DNA of 11,062 bases from Spirochaetota bacterium (lineage in GTDB: Bacteria > Spirochaetota > UBA4802 > UBA5550). A program made the translations under genes and the position numbers. Below the pieces are notes generated by a model that had not been told where the DNA came from, ran no database searches, and saw nothing but the letters and a program-made list of their open reading frames with translations. Shown piece by piece: positions 1 to 11,062 of the stretch (positions within the stretch are counted from its first letter, which is position 1; every line of letters begins with the position of its first letter). Location: positions 1 to 11,062 of the forward strand of contig JBNKTL010000074.1 in the NCBI GenBank assembly GCA_050298055.1, in the 5' to 3' direction.

Positions 1-410
1 AAACAATCCTTAACTTCCGCCTGAAATTCGGTAGTATGTACTTTTATAGGCGGAATATCAGATACTTGCCGCCTTTTATAATCTTTCGGCTCATGATCTT
101 TCAATGAGTTCCCGCAACACATACAGGCATCAACCGATAATTTGATTATTTCATCGGGAGTATCTGTCATCTCAAGAGTTTTCCCTTTGTGACCATTTTG
201 ACCTCCGGATTTCTTCCCAGATTTTCTTCTCTGACTCCTGGTTCTCTTCTTTTTCTTTAATCCATCACTTGATGGCGGTTTACTGCTGTTATGGCTGTTC
301 TTCGCTAATTGACTTTCAAGTTTTTCTATTCGGTCAATTAGCTGAAGTATTAAATCAACAACAGCATCTTTTCCAAGATCATAAATCTTTTCAATTTCTT
401 CTCTTTTCAT
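1..410 (-). CDS. IS66-family transposase, single-ORF ISBst12-like type; N-terminal part, runs off the left edge
   Basis: Manual translation from ATG at 410 gives MKREEIEKIYDLGKDAVVDLILQLIDRIEKLESQLAKNSHNSSKPPSSDGLKKKKRTRSQRRKSGKKSGGQNGHKGKTLEMTDTPDEIIKLSVDACMCCGNSL...RRQVSDIPPIKVHTTEFQAEVKDC, with no stop in the window. The NSxNSSKPPSSD, GGQxGHxG, CxxCG zinc finger and RRQVxDIP motifs are characteristic of IS66 transposases. It is absent from the ORF track, probably because its stop is outside the window. Confidence 0.95.
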   Translation of the reverse strand, partial: MKREEIEKIYDLGKDAVVDLILQLIDRIEKLESQLAKNSHNSSKPPSSDGLKKKKRTRSQRRKSGKKSGGQNGHKGKTLEMTDTPDEIIKLSVDACMCCGNSLKDHEPKDYKRRQVSDIPPIKVHTTEFQAEVKDC

Positions 411-475
411 CGAGACATAATATAAATCATGTCCCTCAAATTAATAGTAAAAATTACTTACTGTTCAAAAAAATA

Positions 476-488
476 GCTGAGTAGTTAC
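476..488 (-). repeat. Left terminal inverted repeat of the IS66 element (GTAACTACTCAGC)
   Basis: The plus strand reads gctgagtagttac at 476-488, 78 bp from the transposase ATG. It matches the GTAACT...CAG type of end recalled for ISBst12-like elements. The partner IR is not visible. Confidence 0.7.
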
Positions 489-496
489 GATTAATC
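489..496. repeat. Candidate 8-bp IS66 target site duplication (GATTAATC, palindromic)
   Basis: Directly abuts the IR, and IS66 elements typically duplicate 8 bp. The second copy would lie outside the window. Confidence 0.5.
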
Positions 497-713
497 ATTA
501 ATTTATCTTTTCCTGTATTTTTAATATACAATCTATCAATCATTCCCATTTTACCATTAAGAAAAGCACCATATATTTGAGCAACATGTAATTTTGAAGT
601 AATTGTTTTCTTTTTTAATTCATCCGGATATCTAATTGGTAATGATCCACATGAAAGGAATGAAATAACAATTAAAAGAATAGGTATTTTTGATTTTAAC
701 ATATTCAAATAAA

Positions 714-719
714 CTCCTT
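714..719 (-). promoter_or_regulatory. Shine-Dalgarno site (AAGGAG) for the lipoprotein gene
   Basis: Plus-strand ctcctt at 714-719, 5 nt from TTG 708 and 11 nt from ATG 702. Confidence 0.75.
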
Positions 720-731
720 AAATTTTAATAT

Positions 732-761
732 TTTATAGTCTGCAACATTTTTGCAGATCAA
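732..761 (-). promoter_or_regulatory. Possible sigma70-type promoter with an operator-like palindrome in its spacer
   Basis: Minus strand TTGATC(761-756)-N18-TATAAA(737-732). Perfect inverted repeat TCTGCAA-N5-TTGCAGA at 739-757. The AT-rich context weakens the promoter match. Confidence 0.35.
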
Positions 762-789
762 TTTTATGCTTTTTAAAGTCTCCACACCG

Positions 790-875
790 CTTCGCACATT
801 GCCGCCTTCTTCACTGGTAAAAAAACTTTTCCCGGCAGGGCGGCAACGTCGCTTACCTCAGCAATTATGCGAAAC
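790..875. repeat. Long imperfect inverted repeat; degenerate attC-like element
   Basis: acattgccgcc (796-806) pairs with ggcggcaacgt (839-849) with one mismatch. Inner ctggtaaaa (814-822) pairs imperfectly with ttttcccgg (827-835). Outer ttcgca (791-796) pairs with tgcgaa (868-873). The hairpin is directly observed; the attC identity is inference. Confidence 0.5.
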
Positions 876-911
876 GCTCAACTCACGGCTTCCTTCACCG
901 GACCGGAACAA

Positions 912-959
912 ACCCCATCCATAAACCCCCTTCCGCGGCCAGGGCAGGGAGGGGACTTT
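912..959. repeat. GC-rich REP-like stem-loop, possible terminator of the toxin-immunity transcript
   Basis: ccccttcc (927-934) pairs with gggagggg (947-954), about 60 bp downstream of the stop at 1016. On the minus strand it is followed only by a short TTTAT tail. Confidence 0.45.
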
Positions 960-1015
960 ACTCCTCCATGCGCCGGGGGACTATGCTCTATTTCATCTTC
1001 TCAATAACATAAGAT

Positions 1016-1501
1016 TTATTCTTTTAAAATACTTTTTGTAAATCGAATATCTAAAGCAACTGAAGTATTAAATAATCTTTTATCAAACATAACAATCATT
1101 GTTATTCTTTCTTTTCCCCTTTTTCTCTTTTTTATGACTTTATAATACTTCACTTCTGAACATATCCATTTTTTATTACCCAATAGGCATATGTTTTCAC
1201 CTTCAATTTTCCAATTACCAATAATTTTTTGTTCACCTAATGAATAATCAATCATTTCAAATTTTTTATTTGCAAAGAATTTAAATGCTGCATGAGGAGG
1301 TCCAGACCACGACCCAATTAATAGATTTATGAAAATTTCTTTGCTACTACTAATTTTATATAATTTATTAAATTCAAAATTCTTTAAGATAAATTCTAAC
1401 TTATTTTTTGAATTTTCTGGATCACTAGTAAAATCATTAGCAATAACTGGATCAATCAATAACAAAATTGATATCAGCAAAGGAAGAAATATTTTAATCA
1501 T
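1016..1501 (-). CDS. Exported 161-aa protein, putative cognate immunity protein (possible lipocalin-like beta fold)
   Basis: Sec-type signal peptide MIKIFLPLLISILLLIDPVIA|ND. AGGAGA RBS at 1509-1514. Overlaps the upstream stop by 8 bp (ATGATTAA). LIGSW...FKF...GNWKIEGENICL beta-strand pattern and a C-x8-C pair. Very AT-rich (8/60 G+C at 1321-1380). The gene call is firm; the function is inferred from context. Confidence 0.8.
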   Translation of the reverse strand: MIKIFLPLLISILLLIDPVIANDFTSDPENSKNKLEFILKNFEFNKLYKISSSKEIFINLLIGSWSGPPHAAFKFFANKKFEMIDYSLGEQKIIGNWKIEGENICLLGNKKWICSEVKYYKVIKKRKRGKERITMIVMFDKRLFNTSVALDIRFTKSILKE

Positions 1502-4500
1502 TCATCAATCTCCTGTTTTGATTCAGTCTTAATTGTAAATAATAACTTGTTTTATGTTCATATGGATTATAATCCCTCGAATATATTCCTTTACCGCCTG
1601 TACTCTCGACAATCCCGTTATCATTCCCTAAATTAACATACACATGATCATACCAGCCAGGAGTTCTCCCATATGAAGTATCTACTCCATTATTCATCGT
1701 TACACCAATAAGACCGGTATAATCATTAACTTCACTCGCATTAAATCTTTCAAAAAGTGAATCATTCCTGAGAATATTAACAGGACCATTTGAGTACGTC
1801 CTATCAACATAATTACCGTCATAGTCATAAGCATCTTTTACTACTGACTTTTTAACATCTTTGAACTCATCTGCATATTCATATGAGTTTTTGTCACCAT
1901 AGAGTAAATTAATATTGTTATGTCCTTTATCAGCTAATCCCATAACGTTAACGCCCAAACTCACAAATGAAGAACAATCAACTCTGCTAATATCATTTAA
2001 GGAACCATCTCTGCTGAAGTTATTTTGATAACCATATTTTATCTCACCTTCAAATTCACTTCCCAGGTTCTCCATAACCCCCGCAAAGGTATTATTCAAG
2101 TGGGTCTGGTCCTGGAAATTCATATCAGAAAAGTGGTCTTTCGCGTTATTAACTGTAAACTGGAATTTATCTTTCCCGGTAATTTCAGCATAACTTGACA
2201 CATCACTTAGTGTCTTAAAGAAAGCGTCAGTATATGCCTTTGCTCCGCTCTTTGTGGGGTCATTCTGTATTGACGGTTCGCTTAAGTCCACGGAAAAGTT
2301 TTTTGATCCCGTGAGTTCCCCATTACTATACTTTAATGCTTCATAATTTAGCCGGTCAACTGAACCTTCAACGATTGATTTGATATTGCCGTCACTGTTT
2401 CTCGTAATATGGATACTTTCGGCATTATCACCTTCATAGTATCCAAGCTGAATTTTTGAATTGAAGTAATCCAGTGAACCTTCACTTATAGCATTGCTGG
2501 TATCGATCTTTCCGGTCGTGTACTCAACCTCTATATTCTGTTTTTTCATGGAATCTTTGTAATCCATCCACTCATCGAAATCCTTATCACTCATTCCAAG
2601 GTCACTGGCACTCGTGAACTCACCGTGAGATATAAGGTTACCGGTTCTCTCAAAGAAATTCCCAACTCCCTGTTTAATAGTATTAAGGAATCCATCGGCA
2701 GCATCCATTCCCTGTTTCATACCGAGGAAAATTCCCCCAAGCATTTCTTCAACCCCGCTGAGCGGGTCATCAGGAAGCTTTCCTTTGGGCAGACTCTTTT
2801 GTTTCGCATATTCCTTCATCAGGTTATTGGTTTTAACAGCGGCATATTGCCCAAGGTCTCTGCCAAGGTCCTGGTGAGTATACCTCACTGAGTCCCAGTT
2901 GAAGCTCCTGTTCGTCATCCCGAACTCCTCGGAAAAACCCTTTCCGTCAAATACCTTGTATGAGAGAGTTTTTATACTGCTGTCGATAAGGCCCGACAAG
3001 GCTTTGTTCATGTAACTGTTGCCGGTTGATTGCTTATACATCATTGCCGATGTGACACCGGAGGCCACACCCGTGGTGATATGCTGGGTCATGTGATCCG
3101 TATCAAACCCGATATCTCTCCAGTTCCCGTCAAGATCGATCCCCGACATCACTGTGCTCTGGAGACCGCTGGAAACACCGGCAAATATACTGCTGTCATC
3201 AATATCGGCCAAGCCTCCGACCCCCTGCATTCCGTAGGTCAGGGCGGCGCTCACCGCTCCTCGTTTTACCCCCTCCCGGAAGTTGTCGTCGTCCCAGCCC
3301 ACGCTTCCGTCAGATTCATATTCTATCCCCGAAGCCGCTGTGGTAATGGCCTGCCCCGCGAGCCGGTAAGCTACCGAATTCCCCATTCCTCCCACATAGC
3401 TTGAAACCGCGGAAATACCGGTCTGGATCACTGCCTGCTTCCATGATATAGCCCCCTGCTTGGCGTCCATAGCCGTAAATGCCGCGTTGAGGAGAAATGC
3501 CGCCCAGGGACATCCGCAGGCGGTGAGGGCTATGCTTCCCGCCACCTGGATCACTGTCCTCGGGGTGGGCATTCCCGGGGCGATGGGAGTGGTCAGTTCA
3601 CCGGTCTGGGTGAGAGCTATCCCCTCCATATATTTCCTGTAGGCATTTGGGAACCGGCCCTCTATGGCCCCGTCCTGCCCCCCGAAGAGCCTCTCCATCT
3701 CCCTGTCAACGTGGGCGTTAAAGGTACCTCCTTCATCGTCGAAGACCTTCTCGATCTCCCTCTGAAGATGGGTTGTTTCCAGCTTCACGTACACGTTAAG
3801 CTCGTCAGCATCAATGTTAGTATATGTGGTGGGATCTGTAAAGTCAATTTCCCCGTCAAGACCCTTGATCGGTTTGAAGCTTACATTATTTTCGTCGAAG
3901 TCCTGGTAGCCAAAATAGGATATGGAGTCGTATCGTGTCACAGAAAGTGTGTGCTCCTTTACAACCTCTATCTCCCAGATATTTGACGTCGGGTTGTAGA
4001 TAAAGGGTGCCTCAAAACCGGCGCTGTTCGTGTAGACGCTGTCCCTGACGCTCTCGTTGGCCCCTGCGACTTGTTCGTTGAAGTTCTCCAGTATCCCGAA
4101 GAGAACATCGGCTATCCTCATGTTCTTCATGACCCCCAACCGGGTCTCGTAACTATCCATCTGTGACCCGTAATCCGCCGAGAGAGCCGACGAGAGATTG
4201 AGGTTCAGAAGATTGGTAAATCCCGCACTGGTGTCAGTATAATTCATGCTCTTGGCCAGAACCCCCAGATCGTTCACGGGAAGGTCAGCCAGGCTTTTGC
4301 TCAATATGCTGTCCATGTCGAATGCGATACTGACCCTGCCCGGCATTCCGTCATTAAATACCCTGACAAAGTTGTTGATCCGGTTTGAAAGCTCCTCGGA
4401 GATCATCCGGGCACTGGCGTCCCCGGAGCTCCGGGAGACATCCGCCTGCCACCTGTTCATCTCACCGGTAAAATCGTTTTTGAGTTTCAGGAGACCCTTC

Positions 4501-7500
4501 TCCCCCTGGTTAATGGCCTCCCGGGTGTCGAACCTCCACTTCTTCCAGAGGGTCAGAAAATCTTTGCTCCTCCTGTCCCAGTCCCTTTCACCCCGGTTCA
4601 GGATAAAGCCCACCACCTCCATCCATCGTCTCTCTCTCTCATTGAACTTCTCAAGCTGGAAGTCCCACTCCTGTTCCTGGAACTCGGTACTCTGGGCTAT
4701 CAGCTTATTAACGATGGTATCGTCAACACTGGTCCCCCTCCCGTCGCTCACAAGCTCGCTCACCAGGGCCTGGTAGCCGGGGAAGGACCTCTGGCGCACC
4801 TCTCCGGAACCGCTGTTGAATGACGCGGCATCTCTCAGGAGGTTCCAGTGAATAAGCTCGATATCCCTGAGCATCACCGTGTTATCGTGGGTCCCCTCCC
4901 GGGATGAGCTCTCCACATAGCCCAGAAGGGTGTCCCTGTGATCACCTCTCACCCTGCCGTAGTCGGCGCTTATCACCCCGATGGCCTCCTTCAGGGAGAA
5001 GACGTTGTCATAGAAGTCAAACCTGTCACCTGTACCATACCCGCTGAAATCGGTAATGGTAGTATTCCCGGTTTTGAGGATCACACTACTATCGTTCAGG
5101 GCATAGTCTTCACCTGTATCAAACCCGTCGCTTCGGAGAAGATATACCCTGCCGTTACTTATCCTGGCCTGTACGGCGTGCCCGTCGGCATCCAGCCTCT
5201 GCATCTCCCTCCGGAGAGTAGTGAGGGATACCTGCTCCCCGGTATCGGGGTCGGTGGCGGGGGTAAACTCATCATAGACATGGCCCAGGTCCTCGGTTGT
5301 GAGCCCGTACTTTGGTCCCCCCAGGATGCTCTTCAGCTGATCGATGCTCCTCACCCGGTCAAAGGCGTAGAGGGCCTCGGTCTCCGCCTGGAGTTCGTTC
5401 TTTTTGGCAAAAAGCTTATCCAGGCTTTTCCGCTTGGGATTCAGACTGTTTGTAAGGGAATTTACCTGGTAAACGGCATTGGCGTTAAGCCATTCATTAT
5501 GCCTGCTGTCCCTCCTCCTTCTCCATCTTCTCCTTTCGATTACATAACGTTTTTTTGTACCATTATATCGATCCCTTGCATACTCATATTCAATTCGTCT
5601 ATATCTCTCGATATAGTATGACCAGCTGTTTCCATCAATTAAGTCTTTATTATATGTATAGAGGATCTCAATATTCTTTTGTATATCGGGATCGATTGCG
5701 TTATACGTATCATACTGTACCTTTATGGACTGTATTTGCGACCCGATAAAGCCGCTATTCCAGAAATTTGTTGGTATGTATTGTTTCCAGGTACGGTATC
5801 CCCAGTAGCATTCTATGGCTTTAGCGTATTCGTTGATCCTGCTGGTCGCGCCGTTACCCATCATATGGGAGATAACTCCATCAACCACAAGGTTCCCCTC
5901 ATCTATACCGAAGATGTTGCTGTAGACAGAGCTCCGGGCGGCATCATAAGAGTCCTGGGCCTTCTCATAGTTGTAGCTCAGCTCGCTTATCTTCTCGTTG
6001 ACCAGGACATCCGCCTGGGCGGTCCGGGTATAGCTCCCGGCCTTCCGGACAAAGTCCTCTCTTAAGGCGGAGTACTCGCCGTCGGCCCGGAGTGTCGCCA
6101 GGGTCTCCTGGTCCCTCAACCCTGTTTCGGCCTCGGTCAGGGCCGTAGCCTTTTCTTCATAGATACCCCGGATATACTCGTAGTTGTCCCGGGCGTCGGG
6201 GACGTTGAGACCGGAGATATCGATAACTCCCCCCCCGTCTGTTCCCGGAACATATCCGCTGCCCACACCTGAGTCCTGGCTGCTCTCCTCCTTCAGGTAG
6301 GGGGTATTGGCATACTCGTATACGGCATAGGCCCTCTCGTACTGGAACTCCGCGTCCTTGAAGGCATTGTAGGCGGTCTCCGCATTCCCCATACTGTTCA
6401 CATATTCGGCGGTCAGTCTGTCGTATATCTCCTTCTGGTCACTGAGCCCGGTCTCCCGGTCCTCGTAGGCAATCCTGGCGTTCTCAACAACAACTCCCTG
6501 CGTCCTGACCTGCTCCCTCAGCTGGTTGATGTCCATGCCATTCAAAAGGTTGTAGGTCTTCCGGGCGGTAATGACCTCCCCCCTGCTCTTCTCCAGCAGA
6601 GCCCCGCTGTTTTTCATATCACCGAAAACAGTATCGAAATTCAGGTTAAATGCATCCCGCGCCCCTTCGATATCGTTTATCTGCCGAGTCAGGTCGGTAC
6701 TGAAAACAAAGTCCCCCTCGGTGTTCCGGGTATAATCGGTATTTGTATCGTAGAAACCGTCCACCGTATCCATAAAGTCCCCGATGGTCAGGGTGTCATC
6801 AATGACTTCCGCGGCCGCCTGGACCTCAAGGTCCTTCATGTTGGCCGCAAAGCTGTTCATCTCCTCAAGGATCAGGTTGTCGATGTCGTCATTCCGGTAA
6901 TTAACGGTGTCCAGTTCCCCGCTGCCGCCGTCCCGGGTGTCCATGCTCTCCCCGTTGTTCTGGGATGCGATACCCCCGTCCTCAAGCCCCCCGAGGATAT
7001 ACCTTCTGTAGCTCTCAAAGGCCCCCGGTTTATCCGCATAATTCACCAGGGTGGTGGCGTATTGCGTAACCCTCCCCTTTTTCATCCTGTCGCCGAAGAC
7101 CACGTCATACACACCGTTTATCTCTCCCGGAAGGTCATAGAGCTCGTCCTCAAAAACGCTCCCCTTGAGCATGATCTCCCCGTTGATCATCCCCTGGAGG
7201 CCGAAGATCCCGCTGTCATACCCCGGCATCATTACCGCATCCAGGTCTGCCCCCTCCAGGGCCCCCGACAGGTAGTAGTACCGTTTGAAGGTCTCAAGGG
7301 CACTCCCCGAAAGCCCGGCCATATACTCCTTTATCTCCTGGCCGTAGTAGTTGTCAATACCGGCAAAACTCCCGATGTATCGGGTGATGCTGTCCCTAAC
7401 CAGGGCGGAAAAGGAATCCCTGCCGTACTGTTCATCCATATAGCTGTCGATCTCAGCCTGGGTCTTGAGGAAGCCGTTATTCAGGAAAAATCCCTGGTAA

Positions 7501-10500
7501 TAGTCGCTTGAAGCCAGGTAGAGCTGCACATCTTCGGGAAGGTAGGCGGCGCTTTTCATGGTTCCGGAGCGGAAAGCGTCGGTAAAAGCGGTATAATCGG
7601 TGAGGTTGGTGGTATCCCCTCCCTCGTTGGCGGTAATAAATCCGTTTACTATTGTGTTAGTGTCGGTCTCACCCCCTGCCAGTTGAGCAGCGATATATCT
7701 CTCCAGGGAGTCGTACCTCAGGTATTCGCCGAATTCGGAATAGGCGCCGGGAGCAGTCCCCCCGGAATTCAGCTCCTCCCTTATGGTCAGGTAGTTGTCA
7801 ATAAGCCCATAGTTCAGGAGTTCGCTTTCACCGGCGGCGTCAAGTCCCCTCCCCGCCACATAGTCCGCAAGGGCACCGGTGATCTCGGCGTCGTTATAGA
7901 GCCTCTTTTCATTAAGGCCGGTAAGGTACTCCCTTAACTGGGCCTGTTCCGCCGGGGTGAAGCCTCCGGCGTTTGTGTCCATGTAGAGGTCCAGGTCCAT
8001 GCTGTTATCAGGGGAGACAAAGCCCGCCCCCAGGCGCTCCTTATCATACTGGAAAAGCATCCCCCGGTATCCCTCTATTAATTCGACAAAATTCTCCACG
8101 ATAAGAATATTTTCAGCAGATTCTCCGTTATCCTCGGTGCCCGCAGCATCGACATAATCGGTAAAATACCCCCGGGTATCCCCGTCAAGGGCGTCAAAGG
8201 CGGCCACAAGGCCCCTTATCATGTCGGTGCCTGATATCTCCGGGTTCTGGAAACTCTCTGTCATGGCGTTCAAAAACTCAGCGGCGGCGGTTGACGTACT
8301 GCTGGCGGCCGTGGCGGCGTCCAGTCTCTCCCGGGCCGTTTCCGGAGTGGCCCCGGCGTTGTTTTTGAGATACTCATACTCGCCCAGCCGGTAACTGTTC
8401 TTTCTCAGCTCTTCGATAAGGGCGGCCACGGCTTTGGGAACGATCTCCCCCCTGCTCTCCTTGGCGATGATATAGCCAGTCAGTCTGTCCGCCGTATCGG
8501 CCATATTCTGGTATGTCATCCCCCGGAGGTTTCCTGTGATCCCGATAATGTCCACCGTGGTTTCGTTGAAGATATCCTCAAGAACGCTCCCCGTTGTTTT
8601 TGTCTCGTTGTCTATGAAGAGACCGTCGTTGGCCGAAACAAAACCGGTCAGGCTGTTTTCCGCCATATCACTGTTTCCCCGGGTGTCCCCGTACTCATCG
8701 AGAAGCGGCATCATTCCGGTATAGCTCCCCCGGGAATAGTACTCCATCAGGATGCCCCTGGCCGCCTCGTCCCCGTTATCGGCGTCGGTAATAAGCGCCC
8801 CGGGATCGATCCCGTCAACGGAATAGATATCAGCCACTCCAAGCGCAATGGCGGTCTCCGTATCCATAAACCCGGTGAAGCTGTCCCAGTTGGTACCATC
8901 AAGCCCCGCTAAATTTGCCCCGGCCCACTTGTAGGCCCCGTAGCTCACCAGGTACTCCCTGTTGTTCCCGCCGTAGGTAAAGCTGCTGGCCTCATATCCT
9001 GCCCTCAGGATATCCATCACCGAGCCGTAGGTGTCGGGAAGAGACCCCCTGGTCCTTACGGTATCCATTGCCTCCCTGATCAGGTTAAACCCTTCCAGGT
9101 TCATCGATGCCATATTCTCATAGGTCTCCCTGTCATATCCCGTCCGGTTCTCCAGGTAAGCCCCGGGATCAAAACTCCTGTCGTGAAGGAAAGAGAAACT
9201 CCGGTCCTTGAGAATAAAGGCAGTTTCAAGGGCCCCGTACTCTCTCCTGAAAAAGCCGGTCAAAAGGGCCCGGGCAGCCTCCTTCTCATCCGCGGGGGCG
9301 CTGTTCCAGTTATCTCTCAGGTTAAGAAGCTCGGCGTACCTGGCGTCTCCATTATCTCCCCACACCTCTGACCGGGCAGTCCCCAGTGCATCGGTCCAGG
9401 CATTGAGGCCGGCGTCGGTCTCCTCTCCGTTCACAATGGCCCTGAAGGCGTTAAAACTGTTTTTTGAGTCCTCCCTCTCCCCTATTGCTTTCTCGTAGAG
9501 CCGGGTAAAGCTGTTGAGCCGCTCATACCGCTCCCGCTGTTTCAGCAGACCGTAGTATTCGCTGCTCCTCTCCCTTACATCCCGGTCAAACCTCCGGAGG
9601 CTGTTCTGGGCATTTATCAGTTCATTCTTGGCGAATTCCGTGTCTTCCCCGTTCTCAAGCACCATAAGGGCCTGAAAGCTCGTCAGGTACTCCGCCCGGG
9701 CGTTTTCAAGGGCGGTCCGGGCCGTTTCAAGCTCTCCCGTAATGCGGTTAATCTCATTTTGGGACGCTGTAAGTTCGGTGATAATGTCCCCTACGTCCCG
9801 GGAGTCGTCAGCGCTGTTATCAAGGAGAAGATCATACTCCTCCCTGGCCCGGTTCATGGCCTCCTCCGCGGTGTTGAGGTTGCTAAGTGTCGTGGCGGCG
9901 TCCTCCCTCACTGTCCCTTCGGGAGGATAGGCGTAATCCAGGACCGCCCGGGCGATATCGCGCCTCCTCTCCCAGAACTCAGCCTCCTTCCGGGCAAGCT
10001 CATACCCCTTCTCCGCTTCGGTCATGAGGTAAGGGTCTTTGGAGCCTTCAGGATTAAGGCCGTAACTTCCGTTGGCGTTTCTTAGAAACCCGGGGCCATT
10101 AATCCCCAGTTCCTCAATGAGATTCCCCTCTATGTTTATATCGTGCATATATGTCTGGGACTGGTTTACCAGGCCGTTGAAGTTGTCCCGCATCTCCGTC
10201 CAGCGGGACATCTCATCCTGGTAGAAGAAGTAGGCGGGCCTGTCGCCGGGATCTGCATTGGAAAGGTCGTTTGTCCAGTTGTAGGAGGCTTCAAAGGTCT
10301 TTGTTTCCGTTTTAGTATAATCAGGAGAACAGGAAATATCATAACAGGTTCCCGAAACACGGTAGCTGTAATTATAGGACATTTTAAGATCGAAACGGTA
10401 TCTCTCTGCGTAGTATGACGGGGAATCCTCACCCCCATAAGTATAGTCATATCCCAAAAAGACAGGAGTGACGCTCAGGTTCACGTTATGGGGTAGGCCA

Positions 10501-11062
10501 TAATATTGAATATAGTAACTAAAGTAATTATGATTATGTTCAAAAAACCCGTCATCCAACGCGCTCTGCACAAAATCGTCAACAAATCCTTCATTAACAT
10601 CCGCGATCTCCGCAGGACCGCCGGTATTTGTAATTGTCTTATCATACGTGAAAACAGGATCGCTGTTTAAATCGTAAAAACCATCATCTCTTTTTCCCAG
10701 AGTATTAATAAAGGTCAGGGTCATGGTGTCCTGGTCCCGGTAGGTCTGGCTTTCATTAATGGCATAGGTGTTTCTCTTCTCAGTCAGCCATTCAATATTC
10801 TCCACGGCCTCCTTGTAGATGTCAGACCCGTTGATGGCGATATCCTTCAGTCCCTGGGAATGATCATCCCACTGCCGGTCCATGGTGGCCATGTAGCTCT
10901 GGAAGTCGTCCCGGGATACCTGGATGTTTGTGGTGAGACGGCTCTCCTGTTCCTGCCAGTCGCTGATCCCCTGGTAGATCTTGCTGGTCAGCTCCTCTCT
11001 CCACTTGTCCCTCTCAGCGACGAGCCTCTCAAAGCCCCTCTGCCACATGGTGTTGCCGTCGT
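1494..11062 (-). CDS. Giant (>=3184 aa, 5'-partial) acidic coiled-coil protein with a C-terminal NlpC/P60-like domain; putative polymorphic toxin, possibly TIGR04388-like
   Basis: Uninterrupted 9.5-kb ORF. The codons upstream of ATG 11048 (GAC GGC AAC ACC) contain no stop or RBS, so the true start is probably outside the window. Long E/A/R/L-rich helical tracts, Trp-periodic repeats, a hydrophobic Gly/Ala-rich region near 3050-3560 and a terminal catalytic motif. The family assignment rests on recalled architecture only. Confidence 0.85.
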   Translation of the reverse strand, partial: DGNTMWQRGFERLVAERDKWREELTSKIYQGISDWQEQESRLTTNIQVSRDDFQSYMATMDRQWDDHSQGLKDIAINGSDIYKEAVENIEWLTEKRNTYAINESQTYRDQDTMTLTFINTLGKRDDGFYDLNSDPVFTYDKTITNTGGPAEIADVNEGFVDDFVQSALDDGFFEHNHNYFSYYIQYYGLPHNVNLSVTPVFLGYDYTYGGEDSPSYYAERYRFDLKMSYNYSYRVSGTCYDISCSPDYTKTETKTFEASYNWTNDLSNADPGDRPAYFFYQDEMSRWTEMRDNFNGLVNQSQTYMHDINIEGNLIEELGINGPGFLRNANGSYGLNPEGSKDPYLMTEAEKGYELARKEAEFWERRRDIARAVLDYAYPPEGTVREDAATTLSNLNTAEEAMNRAREEYDLLLDNSADDSRDVGDIITELTASQNEINRITGELETARTALENARAEYLTSFQALMVLENGEDTEFAKNELINAQNSLRRFDRDVRERSSEYYGLLKQRERYERLNSFTRLYEKAIGEREDSKNSFNAFRAIVNGEETDAGLNAWTDALGTARSEVWGDNGDARYAELLNLRDNWNSAPADEKEAARALLTGFFRREYGALETAFILKDRSFSFLHDRSFDPGAYLENRTGYDRETYENMASMNLEGFNLIREAMDTVRTRGSLPDTYGSVMDILRAGYEASSFTYGGNNREYLVSYGAYKWAGANLAGLDGTNWDSFTGFMDTETAIALGVADIYSVDGIDPGALITDADNGDEAARGILMEYYSRGSYTGMMPLLDEYGDTRGNSDMAENSLTGFVSANDGLFIDNETKTTGSVLEDIFNETTVDIIGITGNLRGMTYQNMADTADRLTGYIIAKESRGEIVPKAVAALIEELRKNSYRLGEYEYLKNNAGATPETARERLDAATAASSTSTAAAEFLNAMTESFQNPEISGTDMIRGLVAAFDALDGDTRGYFTDYVDAAGTEDNGESAENILIVENFVELIEGYRGMLFQYDKERLGAGFVSPDNSMDLDLYMDTNAGGFTPAEQAQLREYLTGLNEKRLYNDAEITGALADYVAGRGLDAAGESELLNYGLIDNYLTIREELNSGGTAPGAYSEFGEYLRYDSLERYIAAQLAGGETDTNTIVNGFITANEGGDTTNLTDYTAFTDAFRSGTMKSAAYLPEDVQLYLASSDYYQGFFLNNGFLKTQAEIDSYMDEQYGRDSFSALVRDSITRYIGSFAGIDNYYGQEIKEYMAGLSGSALETFKRYYYLSGALEGADLDAVMMPGYDSGIFGLQGMINGEIMLKGSVFEDELYDLPGEINGVYDVVFGDRMKKGRVTQYATTLVNYADKPGAFESYRRYILGGLEDGGIASQNNGESMDTRDGGSGELDTVNYRNDDIDNLILEEMNSFAANMKDLEVQAAAEVIDDTLTIGDFMDTVDGFYDTNTDYTRNTEGDFVFSTDLTRQINDIEGARDAFNLNFDTVFGDMKNSGALLEKSRGEVITARKTYNLLNGMDINQLREQVRTQGVVVENARIAYEDRETGLSDQKEIYDRLTAEYVNSMGNAETAYNAFKDAEFQYERAYAVYEYANTPYLKEESSQDSGVGSGYVPGTDGGGVIDISGLNVPDARDNYEYIRGIYEEKATALTEAETGLRDQETLATLRADGEYSALREDFVRKAGSYTRTAQADVLVNEKISELSYNYEKAQDSYDAARSSVYSNIFGIDEGNLVVDGVISHMMGNGATSRINEYAKAIECYWGYRTWKQYIPTNFWNSGFIGSQIQSIKVQYDTYNAIDPDIQKNIEILYTYNKDLIDGNSWSYYIERYRRIEYEYARDRYNGTKKRYVIERRRWRRRRDSRHNEWLNANAVYQVNSLTNSLNPKRKSLDKLFAKKNELQAETEALYAFDRVRSIDQLKSILGGPKYGLTTEDLGHVYDEFTPATDPDTGEQVSLTTLRREMQRLDADGHAVQARISNGRVYLLRSDGFDTGEDYALNDSSVILKTGNTTITDFSGYGTGDRFDFYDNVFSLKEAIGVISADYGRVRGDHRDTLLGYVESSSREGTHDNTVMLRDIELIHWNLLRDAASFNSGSGEVRQRSFPGYQALVSELVSDGRGTSVDDTIVNKLIAQSTEFQEQEWDFQLEKFNERERRWMEVVGFILNRGERDWDRRSKDFLTLWKKWRFDTREAINQGEKGLLKLKNDFTGEMNRWQADVSRSSGDASARMISEELSNRINNFVRVFNDGMPGRVSIAFDMDSILSKSLADLPVNDLGVLAKSMNYTDTSAGFTNLLNLNLSSALSADYGSQMDSYETRLGVMKNMRIADVLFGILENFNEQVAGANESVRDSVYTNSAGFEAPFIYNPTSNIWEIEVVKEHTLSVTRYDSISYFGYQDFDENNVSFKPIKGLDGEIDFTDPTTYTNIDADELNVYVKLETTHLQREIEKVFDDEGGTFNAHVDREMERLFGGQDGAIEGRFPNAYRKYMEGIALTQTGELTTPIAPGMPTPRTVIQVAGSIALTACGCPWAAFLLNAAFTAMDAKQGAISWKQAVIQTGISAVSSYVGGMGNSVAYRLAGQAITTAASGIEYESDGSVGWDDDNFREGVKRGAVSAALTYGMQGVGGLADIDDSSIFAGVSSGLQSTVMSGIDLDGNWRDIGFDTDHMTQHITTGVASGVTSAMMYKQSTGNSYMNKALSGLIDSSIKTLSYKVFDGKGFSEEFGMTNRSFNWDSVRYTHQDLGRDLGQYAAVKTNNLMKEYAKQKSLPKGKLPDDPLSGVEEMLGGIFLGMKQGMDAADGFLNTIKQGVGNFFERTGNLISHGEFTSASDLGMSDKDFDEWMDYKDSMKKQNIEVEYTTGKIDTSNAISEGSLDYFNSKIQLGYYEGDNAESIHITRNSDGNIKSIVEGSVDRLNYEALKYSNGELTGSKNFSVDLSEPSIQNDPTKSGAKAYTDAFFKTLSDVSSYAEITGKDKFQFTVNNAKDHFSDMNFQDQTHLNNTFAGVMENLGSEFEGEIKYGYQNNFSRDGSLNDISRVDCSSFVSLGVNVMGLADKGHNNINLLYGDKNSYEYADEFKDVKKSVVKDAYDYDGNYVDRTYSNGPVNILRNDSLFERFNASEVNDYTGLIGVTMNNGVDTSYGRTPGWYDHVYVNLGNDNGIVESTGGKGIYSRDYNPYEHKTSYYLQLRLNQNRRLMND
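1497..2045 (-). other. NlpC/P60 (papain-like, CHAP-related) cysteine hydrolase domain at the C-terminus of the giant protein
   Basis: IKYGY (Y3005)...RVDCSSFVS (C3025, codon 1976-1974)...WYDHVYVNLGNDNGIVESTGGKGI (H3135, codon 1646-1644; E3148, codon 1607-1605). This parallels the NlpC/P60 consensus Y...DCSG(F/L)V...HVGIYxGxGxxI(H/E)A. Numbering is from ATG 11048. Confidence 0.8.
1509..1514 (-). promoter_or_regulatory. Shine-Dalgarno site (AGGAGA) for the 161-aa gene, inside the 3' end of the giant gene
   Basis: Plus-strand tctcct at 1509-1514, 7 nt upstream of ATG 1501. Confidence 0.8.

Follow-up and report, generated by a model that had tools for sequence, protein, structure and literature searches.

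Gene layout of the window and the giant protein

The 11,062-nucleotide stretch analysed here (the window) is the whole of contig JBNKTL010000074.1 (C74) from the Spirochaetota genome G000, a 4.7-Mb assembly that is 98% complete. Its minus strand carries the 3′ part of a gene for a giant carrier protein with a variable C-terminal tip and, directly behind it, a gene for a 161-amino acid (aa) signal-peptide protein, the two being very probably a toxin and its immunity protein. A scan for open reading frames (ORFs) gave a stop-free minus-strand frame of 3188 aa (11060-1494) with an open 5′ end. An identical full-length protein of 3524 aa (P0001) is present in the protein collection, so the window frame (1494..11060) represents the 3′ 3188 codons of the gene (aa 337-3524), its 5′ end lying beyond the contig. 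Residue numbers below are those of P0001 (open-frame residue number plus 336) and all features of the two genes are on the minus strand. The ATG at 11048, taken as the start codon in a preliminary description of this DNA, is thus an internal methionine. The N-terminus of P0001 has a basic and then a hydrophobic stretch with a hydropathy peak at aa 13-31, which was judged by eye and hydropathy, without a predictor, to be a Sec signal peptide. Elsewhere in the genome, P0001 aa 109-335 match contig C126 at 99.6%, and a carrier start with a signal peptide, 91% like P0001, lies on contig C83.

The gene for the 161-aa protein (1016..1501) overlaps the end of the giant gene, with 8 bp shared (1494-1501). 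The G+C content is 0.49-0.57 in the body of the giant gene, 0.40 and then 0.33 over its last 390 codons, and 0.24 in the partner; values of 0.25 or less are found in only 0.24% of the 2496 ORFs of at least 250 aa in the genome. Both the overlap with an AT-rich signal-peptide gene and the fall in G+C toward the tip (tip 0.33 and partner 0.24, against about 0.55 in the body) had been pointed out previously and are borne out.

The giant protein has two conserved regions and a variable end. Mean identity to seven close family homologues is 26-43% over aa 1-400 and 31-46% over aa 2400-2800, falling to 12-17% past aa 3100. The conserved N-terminal helical domain (aa 35-450), of which the window holds the end (10719..11060), has tryptophans at alternating 15/14-residue spacing; across 54 giants the spacings are 15, 29, 14 and 44 residues. 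This pattern recurs at aa 2468-2540 in a second Trp-spaced helix (4449-4667), which lies inside a conserved pre-toxin region of about aa 2400-2900 (3369..4871), the comparison with the homologues extending up to aa 2800. The pre-toxin region also contains one hydrophobic segment, aa 2842-2860 (3489-3545). Shorter versions of about 2100 aa (P0002, P0003, P0004 and L129) keep both conserved ends with much of the middle gone, and the length of the stalk is therefore variable.

In a crude scan, heptad-like windows cluster at aa about 300-420, 680-850, 1850 and 2460-2520 of P0001. The N-terminal 420 aa of the homologue L035 were modelled as long helices throughout (pLDDT 80.6, pTM 0.50), and this model gave only generic helical-bundle matches, the best with a Z of 11.6, under the tool's caution line for helical proteins; no usable Atlas match was obtained for the domain. 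On these data the earlier term coiled coil is only partly borne out. No RTX, RHS-core, YD or Hint motif was found in P0001 by pattern search, nor any haemagglutinin repeats with Pfam. The statement that the carrier lacks RHS/YD, filamentous haemagglutinin, RTX and Hint signatures accordingly holds for P0001; as to Hint it fails for the family, four members of which, all from genome family f13, carry PT-HINT. Searches of Pfam and NCBIfam with the giant, the tip and the partner returned nothing meaningful, and no Pfam trafficking domain was matched.

The tip and its partner gene

The AT-rich tip spans aa about 3137-3524 (1497..2660) and contains, at aa about 3300-3517 (1518..2171), what is by prediction an NlpC/P60-fold domain. 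When the AlphaFold model of the tip (pLDDT 85.8) was compared with known structures by VIA-align, the top 21 rows were NlpC/P60-type or related wall hydrolases, the best being 6bim (Z 11.3, rmsd 3.0, 132 residues aligned). The putative catalytic residue is Cys3365 (open-frame C3025, codon 1974-1976), whose position had been given correctly in the preliminary description; His3475 (open-frame H3135, codon 1644-1646) and a putative third residue, Glu3488 (open-frame E3148, codon 1605-1607), follow. In the model and alignment the Cys sits on a helix and the His on a strand, as in papain-like folds. A search of 1.84 billion representatives for tip homologues returned 19 hits, and after removal of two repetitive chance hits (P0015, P0019) 17 rows were aligned; counted by eye, every row that reaches the columns concerned has the Cys (15 of 15) and the His (14 of 14). 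Searches of PDB sequences with the tip, a tip profile and a partner profile gave nothing significant. The proposed NlpC/P60 likeness is therefore upheld by the predicted fold, and is not recoverable by hidden Markov model searches of Pfam or PDB sequences. Peptidoglycan hydrolase activity of the tip can be inferred from this fold, and the NlpC/P60 clade has been described as acting on peptidoglycan (Zhang 2012, PMC3482391).

Used directly as a query, the 161-aa partner matched only itself, and its relatives were found only via the DNA behind tip homologues. There, the gene following the tip encodes a partner homologue with a hydrophobic N-terminus in all 22 loci (18 metagenome, 4 genome). These comprise 12 distinct complete partners, which match the window protein with phmmer E-values of 3e-27 to 0.003 in a 25-sequence set. 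In locus L211 the same tip and partner family is carried by a Fil_haemagg_2 protein (E 5.7e-52), and two tip hits (P0017, P0018) show an RHS-core-like motif by eye and have no Pfam hit. A second copy of the tip, 54% identical, lies with its partner on contig C128 of the same genome. Because a partner homologue always stands behind the tip, on other carriers also, in tandem orphans and in the C128 copy, tip and partner are, on the sequence evidence, one mobile cassette, which is exchanged also with haemagglutinin carriers and probably with RHS carriers. The 161-aa product is accordingly a predicted periplasmic immunity protein. Its Atlas feature hits (0.85-0.88) lie below 0.9, and a lipocalin-like beta-barrel is possible, as a lead only. 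No orphan tip-immunity cassette was seen behind the window's own partner. Tandem truncated tips, each followed by a partner, form typical orphan arrays at L221:2500-4700 and L203:150-2740.

The carrier family and the linked RND-TolC cluster

The pre-toxin region has matches in 21 of the 64 genomes of the source's family, while a profile of the N-terminal domain (A1) matches 81 of 401 genomes of the phylum, from many families and mostly in frames of 2000-4600 aa. The carrier is missing from most genomes of some genera, being present, for example, in one of 17 in genus g21. By inference, family f13 was read as Leptospiraceae and f19 as Treponema-like.

As anticipated in the preliminary description for a polymorphic toxin, the C-termini and downstream genes of the homologues vary: 57 tips fall into 39 clusters and 46 partners into 27. 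A complete 3′ end was available for 43 homologues; in 41 of them a partner gene follows within -45 to +100 nt, and the remaining two finish close to a contig end or a run of N. The partners resemble that of the window, with a hydrophobic N-terminus in 40 of 41 and a G+C content more than 5 points under that of the body in 38 of 41. Tips and partners also vary together: of 22 locus pairs whose tips fall in one cluster, 17 have partners that fall in one cluster as well, where 2000 shuffles gave a mean of 1.2 and a maximum of 9 (related genomes were kept). Orphan tip and partner cassettes occur downstream in L030, L105, L111 and L113. In L120, PT-HINT is followed by an Ntox8 domain (E 2.9e-17) and then by a DUF2750 gene (E 3e-22), and Ntox8 and DUF2750 (Imm16) are a listed toxin-immunity pair (Zhang et al., 2012, PMC3482391). 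This DUF2750/Imm16 protein, standing behind a nuclease-type tip, is the sole partner without a hydrophobic N-terminus. The partner in L109 is Imm-NTF2-2. The constant body, variable tip, co-varying partner, orphan cassettes and Ntox8/DUF2750 pair together support the earlier proposal of a toxin-immunity pair on a carrier.

The tips recognised by Pfam are mostly wall peptidases, namely M23 (L039, L117 and the L111 orphan), C39_2 (L040, L043, L126), M74-like (the L121 orphan) and, weakly, NLPC_P60 (L032, L121). Seven others without a Pfam hit (L034, L037, L112, L116, L118, L119, L140) have YkuD-like motifs noted by eye. NADase_transloc (F5/8-type) partners stand behind tips with such a motif in L037, L112, L114 and L118, SH3_3 partners behind the M23 tips of L039 and L117, and LRR partners behind the papain-like tips of L027, L029, L030 and L033. 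The tips of L035, P0002 and P0003 are hydrophobic and Gly/Ala-rich and the partner of L035 resembles a membrane protein (DUF6585), which is consistent with pore-forming tips. A DUF3467-like gene recurs just 3′ of the tip-partner cassettes of L035, L041, L045, L118 and L119, and at L027:14858-19743 three tandem genes of MORN and FGE-sulfatase-like type, two of which were scanned, lie behind the partner. In L103 (G123:C1:801780-815440) the carrier occupies two successive frames (1734 and 2821 aa), with a tip and partner nearly identical to those of L059. The f13 carriers L059, L101 and L107-L110 have 120-250 extra residues ahead of the hydrophobic signal-like stretch.

A relation to the TIGR04388 giants (Lepto_longest) had also been suggested. 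P0001 and nine homologues gave no match to this model at E-values up to 1 (the membership threshold is 45 bits), and TIGR04388 matches occur only in family f13 (12 of 151), which also holds true members of the window's carrier family (4100-4580 aa). A broad N-terminal profile nevertheless matches 9 of 11 TIGR04388-locus proteins, N-terminus to N-terminus, at E-values of 4e-20 to 6e-6 in a 22-sequence set, with reversed-sequence controls at 5.3 bits or less. With no score against the model and yet this N-terminal similarity, the carrier is not a TIGR04388 member and probably belongs to the same superfamily; the suggested relation stands as a distant profile similarity and, in the one TIGR04388 locus read, a common neighbouring gene cluster. 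The TIGR04388 loci L063 and L064 have the same giant-partner-orphan layout. The regions around two of 20 further Leptospira-type clusters were read: in G133 a TIGR04388 giant follows the RND-TolC cluster, separated from it by two large Lcl-domain genes, and in G414 no giant lies within the 20 kb read. At L201:12968-19121 two large Lcl_C-domain proteins occupy this position between RND cluster and TIGR04388 giant. The example LA_3725/LIC10502 is reported to carry PT-HINT (PMC4751964), and LA3725 and the TolC-like LA3733 are near neighbours, eight locus numbers apart, in published tables (PMC2387172, PMC5406399).

The gene set recurring upstream of the carriers encodes a TPR lipoprotein, a small lipoprotein, an OEP (TolC), a HlyD-type membrane fusion protein (MFP), two ACR_tran proteins (E 4e-227 and 2e-185), which are the RND motors, and two Big_5 (Ig-like) lipoproteins. 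In 26 of the 41 loci read this set flanks the giant, with several different gene orders and orientations. A conserved gene for a 265-aa secreted protein stands upstream of many carriers. The preliminary description had raised a phage tail module as a possible context; in the loci read, the upstream genes are this RND/TolC cluster and the secreted partner, with no tail module. The preliminary description did not include the cluster, which lies outside the window, the gene for the secreted partner or the additional carrier copies of this genome. Type I secretion does not fit, as the motors are ACR_tran rather than ABC proteins and the substrate has a signal-like N-terminus, and no TpsB partner was seen beside the carrier.

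A profile of the MFP matched 141 of 401 genomes at 1e-45, with a gap between 126 genomes at 3e-85 or better and 15 at 1e-56 or worse. The strong class is present in 76 of the 81 carrier genomes, 50 genomes have it without a carrier hit and 270 have neither, a table that overstates the association, as linked loci supplied the seeds of both profiles and related genomes do not count as independent cases. The five carrier genomes without this subfamily include two weak carrier hits and two assemblies under 90% complete. Among 70 genomes with both (carrier E of 1e-10 or less, G000 left out), carrier and cluster lie no more than 15 kb apart in 41, share a contig at a large distance in two and are on separate contigs in 27. 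Of the 50 genomes without a carrier hit, three had pre-toxin hits and three have TIGR04388, and in G093 a 3548-aa giant adjacent to the cluster had been missed by A1 (one of 13 neighbourhoods read).

In G000 the cluster runs to the end of contig C54 and on into C81, at whose end stands the gene for the 265-aa protein. Two more copies of this gene end C83, where it overlaps the carrier start, and C11, which suggests up to three carriers in this genome. Contigs C89, C117, C136, C166 and C128 hold pieces of a second copy of the carrier (54-72% identity), whose tip is of the window's type and whose partner has diverged. Contamination was considered for these small paralogue contigs and set aside, as the three upstream-gene copies, one of which ends the 99-kb C11, and a 77-nt overlap between C126 and C89 favour real paralogues; a second strain is a less favoured source of the contigs. 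In L027, L028, L030 and L036 a small toxin-antitoxin-like gene pair, HicAB-like by eye, separates the genes for the Ig-like lipoproteins from that for the upstream partner, and L030 has another such pair behind its orphan cassette.

Proposed function, alternatives and neighbouring elements

On account of the constant carrier, the 39 tip clusters, the co-variation of tip and partner and the orphan cassettes, the carrier family is very probably a polymorphic toxin system of the Spirochaetota. The 3524-aa protein would enter the periplasm via Sec, as its signal-like N-terminus suggests. Its crossing of the outer membrane may then be helped by the linked TolC-MFP-RND1/RND2 proteins together with the TPR lipoprotein and the two Ig-like lipoproteins, a step that we put at an even chance, with the Trp-spaced N-terminal helices as the likely handle and the upstream 265-aa protein possibly acting as chaperone or anchor, like MafA for MafB. 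The long helical body would display or deliver the tip to a neighbouring cell, where the predicted NlpC/P60 domain would cut peptidoglycan stem peptides via Cys3365/His3475. The 161-aa periplasmic protein, to which the tip is coupled in the genome, would bind and neutralise it in the producer and its kin. Comparison of loci shows that tips and partners are exchanged as AT-rich cassettes. No library searched recognises the carrier, and on genomic grounds the cluster is a strong candidate for an export machine of its own. Whether it forms a new secretion system of Spirochaetota, in which a heteromeric RND motor, MFP, TolC and lipoproteins move toxins of 2000-4600 aa by way of a Trp-spaced helix with a 29-residue period, could go either way on the present genomic evidence.

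Several observations weigh against these proposals. Most tips have no Pfam hit, that of the window included, and the PF00877 cut-off is reached neither by the window tip nor by 14 relatives; the best Foldseek E-value is only 0.015 (CwlO). P0001 has no Hint or other releasing protease that could free the tip. As to the export route, 50 of the 126 genomes with the MFP subfamily have no hit to A1, and when ten of these were searched again with a broader profile, the carrier was matched in three and in none of the other seven. In G000 the cluster lies on contigs C54 and C81 and its join to C74 is unassembled, and any of the three copies of the upstream gene may head the window gene. The genome also has one secretin.

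The same toxins might instead leave the cell by general export, through type II secretion or outer-membrane vesicles or on lysis, and the RND-TolC proteins would then be no more than a linked pump for small molecules or lipids. This is compatible with the toxin reading, and we consider it possible, if somewhat doubtful. The signal peptide would suit Sec followed by type II secretion, a secretin occurs in two of five other genomes tested as it does in G000, the seven re-searched genomes have the cluster without a detectable carrier, and the RND proteins keep the acidic motif of transmembrane segment 4 found in ordinary proton-driven pumps. However, the linkage persists through inversions and reshuffling in several families, the distance is no more than 15 kb for 41 of the 43 same-contig cases, and only five of the 81 carrier genomes lack the MFP subfamily. 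The other three genomes tested (G288, G361 and G093), each a single contig and 99-100% complete, carry carrier and cluster and have no secretin match, and a TIGR04388 giant adjoins the same cluster.

Two further explanations concern the giant itself. Wall peptidases make up most of the recognised tips, almost every partner appears to be periplasmic and the closest folds are housekeeping DL-endopeptidases; cluster and giant could therefore be a trans-envelope or periplasmic scaffold of a self-directed envelope machine, with the tip remodelling the cell's own peptidoglycan, perhaps to create space for the complex, under a partner acting as regulator. A housekeeping enzyme is unlikely to be swapped among 39 tip clusters, to share a family with a PT-HINT-Ntox8/Imm16 pair, to occur as a cassette on haemagglutinin carriers also, or to be absent from the majority of genomes in certain genera, as in g21, and we regard this explanation as improbable. 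Less probable still is a tape-measure protein of a phage or tailocin that carries a lytic domain. A long helical protein would fit it, and PHROG 22272, of unknown function, matches P0001 aa 41-429 with an E-value of 2.7e-27 and a relative with an E-value of 0. The proteins have signal peptides, however, no match was found in 50,697 phage records or in plasmids, no viral fold match had an E-value below 0.001, and next to the carrier in the loci read stand the RND cluster and genes of immunity type (no systematic comparison of the neighbours with PHROG was made).

The toxin system proposed here has its closest parallel among polymorphic toxins whose N-terminal domains are lineage-specific, in the Neisseria MafA/MafB/MafI system, which, as described (PMC3482391), likewise has a signal peptide, a conserved N-terminal domain, a variable C-terminal toxin, a downstream immunity gene, orphan cassettes and a gene for a secreted partner immediately upstream. 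Unlike MafB-type systems, the spirochaete carrier has no Pfam trafficking match, a helical body of 2000-4600 aa, a phylum-wide distribution rather than one within a single genus, and a linked RND-TolC cluster. With the TIGR04388 proteins it shares a giant secreted protein, variable tip, partner and orphan cassettes. With CdiA/CdiB and RHS toxins it shares a long carrier, an exchangeable tip and the same tip-partner cassette (for RHS by the motif seen by eye), whereas the window carrier has no haemagglutinin or YD repeats. Tox-NLPC/P60 toxins and type VI secretion pairs (Tse1, Tae3-Tai3) have a similar papain-like Cys-His fold, which acts on peptidoglycan, and an adjacent periplasmic partner; in the structural comparison the tip fold scores higher with CwlO/LytE/NlpC1 (Z 9.9-11.3) than with Tae3 (7.2) or Tse1 (6.2), the tip has large insertions and its partner is of an unrelated family, and no VipB match was found in G000. 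For export, MacAB-TolC is reported to secrete enterotoxin STII, and Aat dispersin, by Sec followed by a tripartite TolC pump (PMC5985334). As the precedents described there concern small proteins, up to about 10 kDa, and an ABC motor, in contrast to an RND pair and a substrate near 390 kDa here, an RND route is both doubtful and interesting.

If it does operate, this route would serve the TIGR04388 giants of Leptospira as well as the present family. It would then provide an example of a protein of very large size transported by an RND pump, a categorically new kind of protein export. Apart from its export, the family is a candidate antibacterial weapon widespread in spirochaetes, in at least a fifth of the genomes sampled; it may tie the unexplained Leptospira giants to a carrier family and supply dozens of unclassified toxin and immunity domains. 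The literature searched holds no description of the carrier family or of the linked RND cluster and no paper naming TIGR04388, although subscription journals and supplements (for example on the PT8 carriers of Nachmias) could hold one. In the Nachmias preprint (10.1101/2021.10.19.465003), the list of trafficking domains has no such domain and the toxin PT8 is Leptospiraceae-specific.

The remainder of the window lies 3′ of the partner gene. An intergenic repeat of about 274 bp (710..982, no strand assigned) is GC-rich and cassette-like; it is 92% identical to a copy on contig C10, which also has a partial one, and precedes lipoprotein genes both here and on C10. The lipoprotein-like gene following it in the window (488..708, minus strand, 73 codons) is cut by the end of an IS66-family element, and nothing ties it to the toxin system. 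This element end, with the start of a transposase (DUF6444 and zf-IS66 by Pfam/NCBIfam), occupies 1..488 on the minus strand, and the same IS66 end begins contigs C75 and C91, breaking both. The contig end at G000:C10:97972-101976 holds an AT-rich partial ORF, a 203-aa cyclase-like gene, a DUF3467-like gene and lipoprotein genes separated by the window repeat, and may be where a further toxin locus has its 3′ end.

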